DNA of 64,000 bases from a virus (IMGVR_UViG_2974549561_000001:39446-103445); one strand, 5' to 3'; shown: positions 29,501-32,500, counted from the stretch's first letter. Program-made: the numbers.

Positions 29501-32500
29501 GACCAGTGAAACAGCATTGCTGTCACTTGGTCGTGGCAGCCCGGACCGACGATGAAGCATATTTAGCTGGCCCAAATGTTGCTGGATAGTTTTTACTGCC
29601 AGACCGCGCGCCTGAAGATATAGAAGATAATCGCGAACATCTTCAGGTTCTGCGGGAAACCATTTCCGGTTATTCAACTTGCACCATGCCGCCCACGACC
29701 GGCAAACGGACAGAAGCATTTTCCAGGTATGCTCAGAAAACGCCTGGCGATCCCTGAACATGTCCATCAGGTTCTTGCGAACCTCATCACTCGTTGCATC
29801 GACCGGTAATGCAGGCAAATTTTGGTGTACGGTCAGTAAATTGGACATTTAACACTCAGATAATGGTTTTAAGTAAAGTGTACAGGATCGGCTCTGCCTT
29901 TACCTGTTTATGGTTCTCGTCATAGAAACGCCAGCGACCGCGCGTGCGTTCTATTTTCTCTTCACCGCGCGATAATGACAGTTGACAACTATCACGATCA
30001 AACCCTTTTGCCCGCCAGTAACCACGGTTTTTCTCAAGCTCAAGATGAGTGGACACTTTAGCAGCTGAATATCCCATTTTTCACCTCTGATTGATTGGTG
30101 GTGCTAAGTGCGCTACGCGAAATCTGGAGCACAAACACTGCCAACATTTCACAGATTTTACGTAGCGCAACCTTGATCAAATGATCAAGTGATCACTATT
30201 TGACCTGATAAGGTATTGAACTGTATGGATTTACAGGTAAATTGATCATGTTCAATAACCCTTAAGATAACTTCGTATAATGTATGCTATACGAAGTTAT
30301 TAGGTCTGAAGAGGAGTTTACGTCCAGCTGCGCATAAAAATCAAGAATTATTAGAGCAATAAATTTTGAGAGAAAAATCCCACTCCACCAGCCAAAAACT
30401 GGATTGTTTTTCATAGTTGTTTGACAATTGCTCTAATAAATTATAGTTTTGCCGCCGTTTCGTAATACGACTTTGGATTCACTATTTAATGTGTCTTCAG
30501 CGTTGTAGAGCGGCTCAGAAGGAAATGAGCAAACAGGGAAACCTTATACAACGGCATTACAGCTATGCATTGCTCATCTTACACACAGCGCAATGTTGTT
30601 AGATTACCCCAGCATGGATCATGGGTGAAACAGTAGGTCAGAGCTTCAGGCTCTGTGTTGTCAATACAGTGAGGCATAATTATGGCTTTCATTCCACCAA
30701 CCATCGACGACGTTAGACATTGCTCTAACGCTTTATCTGTAGACCCCGCCGAAACCGACGCTGCCCGCGCCATTGCTGAACACTACTCAAAGATATCCAA
30801 TCAGGAGTACCGCATCACCCAAGACGACCTGGATGATCTCACTGACACAATCGAATATCTCATGGCCACTAACCAGCCAGACTCACAATAAATGCACTAA
30901 TAAATCTATTATTTTCGTTGGATCCTTCTATAATGGTGGCCAACAACTCCCAGTGTAATCCGCTGTGAGTTGTTGGCCATGTCAATTCTGGAGGAGGATC
31001 AATGATAAATTATGTCTACGGCGAACAACTGTACCAGGAGTTCGTCAGCTTCAGGGATCTCTTTCTAAAAAAAGCTGTTGCACGCGCCCAACACGTTGAT
31101 GCCGCCAGCGACGGTCGTCCTGTTCGCCCGGTTGTCGTTCTGCCGTTCAAAGAAACGGACAGCATTCAGGCTGAAATTGATAAATGGACTTTAATGGCGC
31201 GGGAACTGGAACAGTACCCAGACCTCAATATCCCAAAGACTATTTTATATCCAGTGCCTAACATCCTTCGCGGTGTGCGTAAGGTTACGACTTATCAGAC
31301 AGAAGCTGTGAACAGCGTCAACATGACCGCTGGCCGCATTATTCATCTGATTGATAAGGACATTCGCATCCAGAAAAGCGCGGGGATCAATGAGCACAGT
31401 GCGAAATACATAGAGAACCTGGAAGCAACAAAAGAGCTAATGAAGCAGTACCCGGAGGATGAAAAATTCCGTATGCGTGTACACGGCTTTAGCGAAACAA
31501 TGCTGCGCGTCCACTACATTTCCAGTAGCCCTAACTACAATGATGGTAAATCAGTTAGTTACCATGTGCCGCTGTGTGGTGTGTTTATCTGCGATGAAAC
31601 TCTCCGTGATGGAATCATCATCAACGGTGAATTCGAGAAAGCAAAATTTAGCCTTTATGACTCTATAGAACCGATCATCTGCGACCGCTGGCCGCAGGCA
31701 AAAATATATCGCCTGGCAGATATTGAAAATGTAAAAAAACAAATTGCCATCACTCGCGAAGAGAAAAAGGTCAAATCAGCCGCATCAGTTACGCGCAGCC
31801 GTAACACTAAGAAGGGGCAGCCAGTAAACGACAACCCCGAAAGCGCGCAATAGTTTCTATCCGGCATGGTCAATGAGTTATTCATTAAGCCATGCCAGAG
31901 CTTCATCAACCTGCGCTTCGTCTTCGACGCTAAGCACTTCATCCTGGGGAACATAATCAGCCAGCATAGCGAAACAATATGTATCCCAATGGTCTGGTGA
32001 GTGCAGGTTGAGTTTTTTCTTCATATCCTCCTTACTCATCACCTTCCATTGACCTGCGGAGTTAATCCCTACAGGGATTTTCGACGCTTCCTCAATAGTT
32101 TCATTACCCTTATCCAGTCTCATACGACCAGATTTTACGGCCTCTGCGGCTTGAACGTTGGCATAAGCACGTTTATCAAAGTACAGGCTCTTATCTTCAC
32201 GGCTATGCATCTTTTTACCCCAGCGTATACGCTGTACGGTAATACCATAATACTCGTACATCAGATCCGCCGTTGCTTTACCCAGGCCATCGCCGTCTAT
32301 CGCTATGGTGATATTGGGGAATCGCTCAGGATTACATTCTGCGAAAATTTTGGCGGCAAGCTGCGTTTCTGTAACGTCTGTGTATTCCAGCATTCGATAG
32401 TTGATTACACGGCGTTTATTTCGCTGGCCGGACACCATCATGATATTGATAACGGACTTATCCCGTCCCGTACCACCAGCAACGTCCACACATGCAAGCC

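Follow-up and report, generated by a model that had tools for sequence, protein, structure and literature searches.

The cre regulatory region of a P1-type phage-plasmid: GATC repeats at the distal promoter and the upstream gene cra

The regulatory region of the cre gene of phage P1 was described by Sternberg, Sauer, Hoess and Abremski (1986, J Mol Biol 187:197; accession X03453), in a paper the title of which states regulation by DNA methylation, and re-annotated by Lobocka et al. (2004; accession AF234172). The locus analyzed here is the same: the interval 29849-30266 of a stretch of 64,000 nucleotides of viral DNA (IMGVR_UViG_2974549561_000001:39446-103445; hereafter the window) is the leader of a cre gene read from the minus strand. 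The promoter, the Dam sites and the open reading frame (ORF) found in it were all published in 1986 and re-annotated in 2004, and the feature is already known. In X03453 are marked the promoter pR1, provided with two alternative -35 hexamers, the promoters pR2 and pR3, two ribosome-binding sites and a 'pot. ORF1 (aa 1-73)'. In AF234172 are marked 'Dam methylation site 1, 2, 3 within the regulatory region of cre' (nt 37-40, 98-101 and 106-109), the promoter P3cre (-35 at nt 104-109, on Dam site 3; -10 at nt 124-129), cra (nt 207-428) with P2cre and P1cre inside it, and, on the opposite strand, P2coi, which has a LexA site in its spacer. P3cre, P2cre and P1cre correspond to pR1, pR2 and pR3, respectively.

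Other systems share features with this locus. Dam-sensitive sigma-70 promoters with a GATC in the -35 or -10 hexamer are known from the IS10 transposase gene (pIN), trpR and dnaA (P2). The cre leader resembles them in that a GATC lies inside a promoter hexamer and expression would be tied to the methylation state after replication; it differs from them in that its GATCs are part of a tandem 8-bp repeat of variable copy number, and in having two -35 options, set at the non-optimal distances of 14 or 22 bp. The P1 plasmid origin, oriR, has five close GATC repeats which are bound by SeqA when hemimethylated, and which control replication initiation. The cre leader has in common with oriR the close spacing of the GATC repeats (7-8 bp) and the replicon; a GATC cluster as dense as that of oriR was found nowhere else in the window. 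The pac site (Sternberg and Coulby 1990) likewise belongs to the same phage, features a closely repeated TGATCA hexamer, and functions in a manner dependent on adenine methylation. Yet pac is a cleavage site that needs methylation, made up by 4 + 3 hexamers in two blocks within pacA, whereas the cre leader has three hexamers, outside pacA, in a promoter the activity of which is reported to be lowered by methylation. The cre-leader cluster thus lacks the set of seven TGATCA/G hexamers, arranged 4 + 3 within pacA, by which pac is recognized.

The GATC cluster at the distal cre promoter

It is highly probable that the interval 29849-30266 serves a P1-type phage-plasmid as regulatory region of cre, and that pR1 is controlled in it by Dam methylation. 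The segment 29700-30420 matches the immC region of phage phiW39 at 100% identity and reference P1 at 97.9%, identity ranging from 97.9 to 99% over P1, P7 and other Punavirus records; the features found beneath the match in phiW39/P1-type records are cre, cra and a lox site. As the alignment to AF234172 is ungapped here (window position = 30284 - P1 coordinate), the P1 annotations transfer base for base, and all the annotated hexamers of pR1, pR2 and pR3 are found unchanged at their published positions. The two loci share loxP, identical in both arms and spacer, the -10 and -35 of pR1, pR2, pR3, both ribosome-binding sites, the 7-nt gap between cra and cre, and the order of genes, which is that of P1 in reversed orientation. 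They differ at site 30190-30195, which is a third TGATCA in the window and TGACCA in laboratory P1, at a handful of single nucleotide polymorphisms between the pR1 -10 and cra, at residue 5 of Cra (A here, T in P1), and at one residue of Cre, 342 of 343 residues being identical to reference P1 Cre and T206A (codon 206 at 29233-29235) being the sole substitution. By these comparisons the window is assigned to a P1-like phage-plasmid. A 201-bp core of the cre-leader feature is present in 709 PLSDB plasmid records.

The sequence TTGATCAAATGATCAAGTGATCA is found on the plus strand at 30173-30195. GATC sites start in it at 30175, 30183 and 30191, and a fourth one starts at 30244; the three clustered sites span 20 bp, in agreement with the first-pass annotation, which had located three GATCs within about 25 bp upstream of cre. 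Each of the three is the core of a TGATCA hexamer, and the cluster is a tandem repeat of the 8-bp unit TGATCANT, the copy number of which varies among relatives. Sites b and c (Table 1) are the published Dam sites 2 and 3 of AF234172, while site a is the one which reads TGACCA in reference P1. The notion that the leader hosts a methylation-controlled promoter, also advanced from the sequence at first pass, is essentially right and agrees with the records X03453 and AF234172, the Dam effect itself being taken from the literature. The assignment of the sites to a cre promoter can be refined: they reside in the -35 region of pR1, the most distal of the three cre promoters, which drives cra and cre together and does not lie directly before cre. 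In the cre sense, 327-346 nt separate the cluster from the cre ATG, and about 100 nt separate it from the cra ORF; moreover, only two of the three sites had been published. With a start of transcription about 7 nt past the -10, near 30148, the GATCs would be placed at about -27/-30, -35/-38 and -43/-46.

GATC sites are found in the internal promoters too. The -35 of pR2 holds one (29996-29999), and another (29886-29889) is 2 nt upstream of the -35 of pR3; AF234172 labels as Dam sites just the three upstream sites, not those of the internal promoters. All three cre promoters are potentially methylation-sensitive. On the opposite strand, P2coi reads through loxP toward imcA/imcB/coi, and the LexA box in its spacer, CTG...ATCCATACAG, is invariant in distant relatives. 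An Rfam search of the segment 29700-30700 at a permissive threshold gave no match.

The distribution of the GATC sites was monitored in 85 related loci, each featuring a lox site and a pR1-type promoter. Three GATC sites, as in the window, are found in 69 loci. Two are found in the P1-reference form with TGACCA (3 loci), in a form that has lost exactly one 8-bp unit (4 loci; L021, L028, L093 and L095), and, in other combinations, in distant relatives (9 loci). Three sites are thus the common natural form, and the laboratory P1 reference carries the minority two-GATC allele. No change was found at sites b and c in 60 distinct close relatives. Site c is invariant also in relatives of the Klebsiella, Salmonella and Enterobacter type, in which the synonymous sites of cra and cre are saturated; these distant relatives have at least one further GATC, 7-16 bp from site c, at positions that shift. 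Every lineage features at least two GATCs 11-28 nt upstream of a conserved GCTACGT/-10 block, in the patterns a+b+c, b+c, a+c and c+d. As the positions turn over and at least two GATCs are nonetheless retained, GATC density itself appears to be selected, which fits methylation acting directly at the -35 contact as well as the binding of a methylation-state reader such as SeqA. The isolated site at 30244 is invariant in five diverse aligned sequences, and is changed to GATT in 5 of the 60 distinct close relatives.

Conservation is a stronger argument for the cluster than chance statistics. GATC sites are not enriched in the window, 251 being observed vs. 263 +/- 14 expected. Three TGATCA hexamers within the span of the cluster were never obtained in 400 simulations, and no further copy of TGATCA-NN-TGATCA was found elsewhere in the 64-kb window. 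Dense GATC/TGATCA clusters recur in the window at two places only, 34204-34231 and 34324-34361, both in pacA, where they are made up by 3 and 4 hexamers, respectively; we take them to be the P1 pac site, the 3 + 4 layout of which they match.

The cra gene and the inverted repeat I1

The possible 73-codon ORF spotted at first pass was found at exactly 29856-30077, on the minus strand, and is cra. This is a real gene, conserved and under purifying selection. The pairwise ratio of nonsynonymous to synonymous changes (dN/dS) varies from 0.07 to 0.27, synonymous sites being saturated. Homologues 59-99% identical to Cra reside in P1-like elements of Escherichia, Salmonella, Klebsiella and Cronobacter, and 33 columns are invariant in the alignment over this range of identity; in all these elements cra stops 7 nt short of cre. 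The gap between cra and cre is kept at 7-8 nt in the Klebsiella, Salmonella and Enterobacter relatives. When 1.8 billion representatives were searched with a Cra profile, only 16 matches were retrieved; the distant ones are 65-79 aa long and share the motif G[YF]WRAKGF. One of these distant homologues, 41% identical to Cra, is encoded 8 nt upstream of a homologue 64% identical to Cre. Another (P0047, 73 aa; metagenome contigs L096-L098) is encoded divergently beside an umuD/umuC-like operon, and is followed by no recombinase gene. Members of the Cra family usually, though not strictly, travel with cre. A scan of genome contigs for Cra yielded three loci only.

Cra matches phrog_804 (E-value 7.2e-35; residues 3-73 vs. 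profile positions 1-72 of 72), an unnamed family and the only one found in PHROGs; no meaningful family was found in Pfam, NCBIfam and PADLOC. The AlphaFold model has an alpha-beta4-alpha layout and a predicted local distance difference test (pLDDT) score of 69, indicating moderate confidence. A Foldseek search of the model against BFVD found uncharacterised small phage proteins only, at E-values of 0.007 or higher, and no informative structural neighbour. An arm-binding or AP2-like domain, surmised by eye, was rejected, no scan supporting it. The knock-down data obtained by CRISPR interference in PMC10695390 indicate that cra and cre are non-essential for plaque formation.

Several homologues of Cra (P0002, P0005, P0006, P0012 and others) are called 'creatininase' by NCBI. 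The name is wrong for a 73-aa protein matching no enzyme family, and looks like one that spread from the symbol cra. Variation was also observed upstream of the gene. In Klebsiella, Salmonella and Enterobacter relatives (L004-L012) a gene encoding 356 aa (phrog_7674, no Pfam match; at about 1434-2504) is found between the homologous promoter/leader and cra, the start of which it overlaps by 4 nt; some of these loci add there an ORF of 68 aa (phrog_19934). The P1 lineage has neither the phrog_7674 gene nor the phrog_19934 ORF.

An 18-nt inverted repeat, here called I1 (TGCGCTACGYRAAATCTG), brackets the -10 and the start site of pR1. The arms are 89% complementary, and the repeat is not annotated in the P1 records AF234172 and X03453. 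Among the 60 distinct close relatives, variation is found at 3 of 36 arm columns vs. 12 of 25 loop columns (Fisher p = 6.5e-4), and at 1 of 18 columns in the proximal arm. In distant relatives the loop is unrecognisable, and both arms persist. One pair is swapped from AU to UA in two lineages, and another is found as AC, AU, GC and GU; this covariation, which involves about five independent lineages and is reached by 25 of 500 shuffles, is suggestive at best. Shuffled sequences fold as well as the inferred pR1 leader (30149-30050; z = 0.39). The full I1 hairpin scores better (z = -2.26), and requires the distal arm, which is upstream of the inferred start; as the distal arm precedes the start, a role as RNA hairpin needs read-through from upstream. 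I1 is more naturally read as a candidate pair of operators than as a hairpin. The arm motif, with up to 3 mismatches allowed, is found in the window at its own two positions only, and the hypothesis of a regulon of I1 arms in the window was rejected on this ground. The arm also resembles a lox half-site (about 6 of 13 residues by eye), which was judged due to chance. It is unlikely, in our estimate, that I1 is the operator of a repressor, possibly Cra itself in an autoregulated cra-cre unit, and that gain and loss of the 8-bp TGATCANT unit set the strength of the Dam response. If this were true, Cre dosage would be subject to a two-layer control, epigenetic and by repressor, not previously described.

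Features around the cre leader

The coordinates of the elements discussed are collected in Table 1, along with those of neighbouring genes. Altered 8-bp lox spacers, flanked by canonical arms, were observed in L007-L009 (ACACACAT), L084 (GCGTTCAT) and L094 (GCGAACAT). On the analogy of known lox spacer mutants, these variants would probably not recombine with canonical loxP. On the side of cre opposite to the leader, the segment 19000-27700 is 100% identical to 103,445-bp phage-plasmids of Salmonella, of the SJ46 type, carrying TnAs1, IS903B and blaCTX-M-27; the last is about 2.3 kb downstream of cre, and adjoins ref. SJ46 is a P1-like phage-plasmid (PMC5241659).

Table 1. Position of the features in and around the cre regulatory region (window coordinates)
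Feature	Position	Strand	Remarks
TnAs1 transposase	19068-22034	-	
IS903B	24666-25634	-	
blaCTX-M-27	25669-26544	-	transposon-borne extended-spectrum beta-lactamase gene
cre	28817-29848	-	343 aa; starts 7 nt after the cra stop codon
cra	29856-30077	-	73 codons + stop, ATG ORF; 'Cre-associated' protein; ORF1 of X03453
pR3 / P1cre	29860-29884	-	3' end of cra; AF234172 nt 400-424
pR2 / P2cre	29972-30001	-	inside cra; -35 TTGATC 29996-30001, -10 CATTAT 29972-29977; AF234172 nt 283-312
Shine-Dalgarno of cra	30082-30087	-	GAGGTG, 4 nt before ATG; within 'put. rRNA binding site' of ORF1 in X03453
I1 proximal arm	30109-30126		CAGATTTCGCGTAGCGCA (cre strand); about +23 to +40 of the inferred pR1 transcript
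I1 distal arm	30152-30169		TGCGCTACGTAAAATCTG (cre strand); contains the pR1 -10
pR1 / P3cre	30155-30180	-	-35 TTGATC 30175-30180 (alternative 30183-30188), -10 TAAAAT 30155-30160; AF234172 nt 104-129, X03453 nt 147-180
Three TGATCA hexamers	30174-30195	-	8-bp register; a 30190-30195, b 30182-30187, c 30174-30179
P2coi	30216-30243	+	sigma-70 promoter; -35 TTGAAC 30216-30221, -10 TAAATT 30238-30243; AF234172 nt 41-68
LexA box	30221-30236		CTGT-N8-ACAG in the P2coi spacer; core of the AF234172 LexA binding site, nt 46-65
GATC, 'Dam methylation site 1' of the cre regulatory region	30244-30247		AF234172 nt 37-40; abuts the P2coi -10
loxP (13-8-13)	30267-30300		ATAACTTCGTATA ATGTATGC TATACGAAGTTAT; perfect inverted repeat I3; lox in phiW39, P1 and X03453
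coi	30682-30891	+	
c1	31002-31853	+	
pacB	31878-33362	-	

Alternative explanations and a proposed mechanism

A number of points weigh against Dam control of pR1. The analysis is one of sequence only. The DNA packaged by P1 is methylated by a Dam-type enzyme of the phage itself, and the time at which unmethylated sites would occur in vivo is therefore uncertain. A consensus scan of the segment 29700-30500 for promoters and terminators gave no hits, and thus no sigma-70 promoter; the pR1 hexamers TTGATC and TAAAAT are present, 14 or 22 bp apart, too odd a spacing for the scan, so that a good promoter is not predicted by sequence alone and the existence of pR1 rests on the experiments published in 1986. 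The bare GATC triplet, moreover, is not significant in 64 kb: random placement of the sites brings three GATCs within 17 bp in 34% of trials, first-order Markov simulation in 67 of 400, hence by chance in 17-34% of sequences of this size. These figures would suit the view that the triplet is a repeat without function, born by chance or slippage, and the ORF a fortuitous frame in a long cre leader, as would the different number of repeats in different isolates, the dispensability of cra, and the fact that Cra has neither a Pfam or NCBIfam family nor an informative structural match. Such a view is already contradicted by the conservation data and is very improbable: sites b and c do not vary in 60 distinct sequences in which 12 positions of the 25-nt loop close by do, site c persists in lineages that have diverged to saturation at synonymous sites, and cra features a dN/dS well below 1, fixed synteny with cre, and a motif shared by small homologues residing in unrelated contexts.

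Two further explanations assign the cluster to proteins other than RNA polymerase. It is possible, though rather unlikely, that the cluster mainly binds SeqA or another reader of the methylation state, in which case the hemimethylated cluster would be sequestered after replication, and pR1 shut or timed by the bound protein. Binding by SeqA requires two or more hemimethylated GATCs no farther apart than about three helical turns; the close GATC repeats of the P1 plasmid origin are bound by it. Three GATCs within 20 bp are compatible with this, at least two being needed within about 30 bp, and what is conserved is the presence of at least two close GATCs rather than a fixed -35 hexamer, since positions turn over (a+c, b+c, c+d) and whole 8-bp units are gained or lost between relatives. 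Spacings of 8 and 16 bp, however, set neighbouring sites on different faces of the helix, which is not the geometry preferred by SeqA, and the coincidence of the sites with annotated -35 hexamers offers a simpler, direct explanation; SeqA binding is anyhow compatible with methylation acting on the promoter, the two not being mutually exclusive. There is very little chance that the TGATCA repeats are instead a pac-like or other recognition element (e.g., for PacA/PacB) with no role in cre transcription. The same hexamer is repeated in the two clusters found in pacA, and these and the cre leader are the only loci with dense TGATCA clusters in the window. Still, the cre leader has three hexamers at 8-bp spacing, the pacA clusters 3 + 4, spaced 7-15 bp and split into two blocks with about 95 bp between them, and the cre-leader cluster lies exactly on the mapped -35 of pR1. 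We know of no report of pacase cleavage near lox.

Direct control of pR1 by Dam is the explanation we favor. The -35 region of pR1 is made up by tandem 8-bp TGATCANT units, two (laboratory P1) or three (window) GATCs being consequently located on or beside the contact of sigma region 4. From pR1, cra would be transcribed along with cre, the cra stop codon being followed 7 nt later by the cre ATG; pR2 and pR3, weaker and internal to cra, would serve cre alone, and P2coi, controlled by LexA, would point away from cre, across loxP. With the GATCs of the -35 region fully methylated by Dam, transcription from pR1 would be lowered; unmethylated sites, or sites transiently hemimethylated just after replication, would raise it. 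The resulting burst of cra-cre expression may be timed to the possible need for loxP to resolve sister copies, or to cyclise an incoming linear genome. The third GATC would add one methyl group at about -43 to -46. Transcription from pR1 is reportedly higher in dam- than in dam+ hosts. The Dam response of pR1 is taken from the literature, and its direction, size and timing come from there or are inferred. The identity of the elements with those of P1, the conservation of the GATC sites and the coding nature of cra emerge from the comparison of sequences, as do the pair of divergent promoters beside loxP and the compact two-gene unit made up by cra and cre.

As a discovery the locus carries little weight, being known since 1986. 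Its analysis nevertheless reveals that cra is clearly under selection and travels with cre, and that a conserved inverted repeat, apparently unremarked before, resides at the start of pR1. Resistance genes (CTX-M-27 in the present case) are widely carried by natural P1-like phage-plasmids, most of which have three GATCs at this promoter, laboratory P1 having two.

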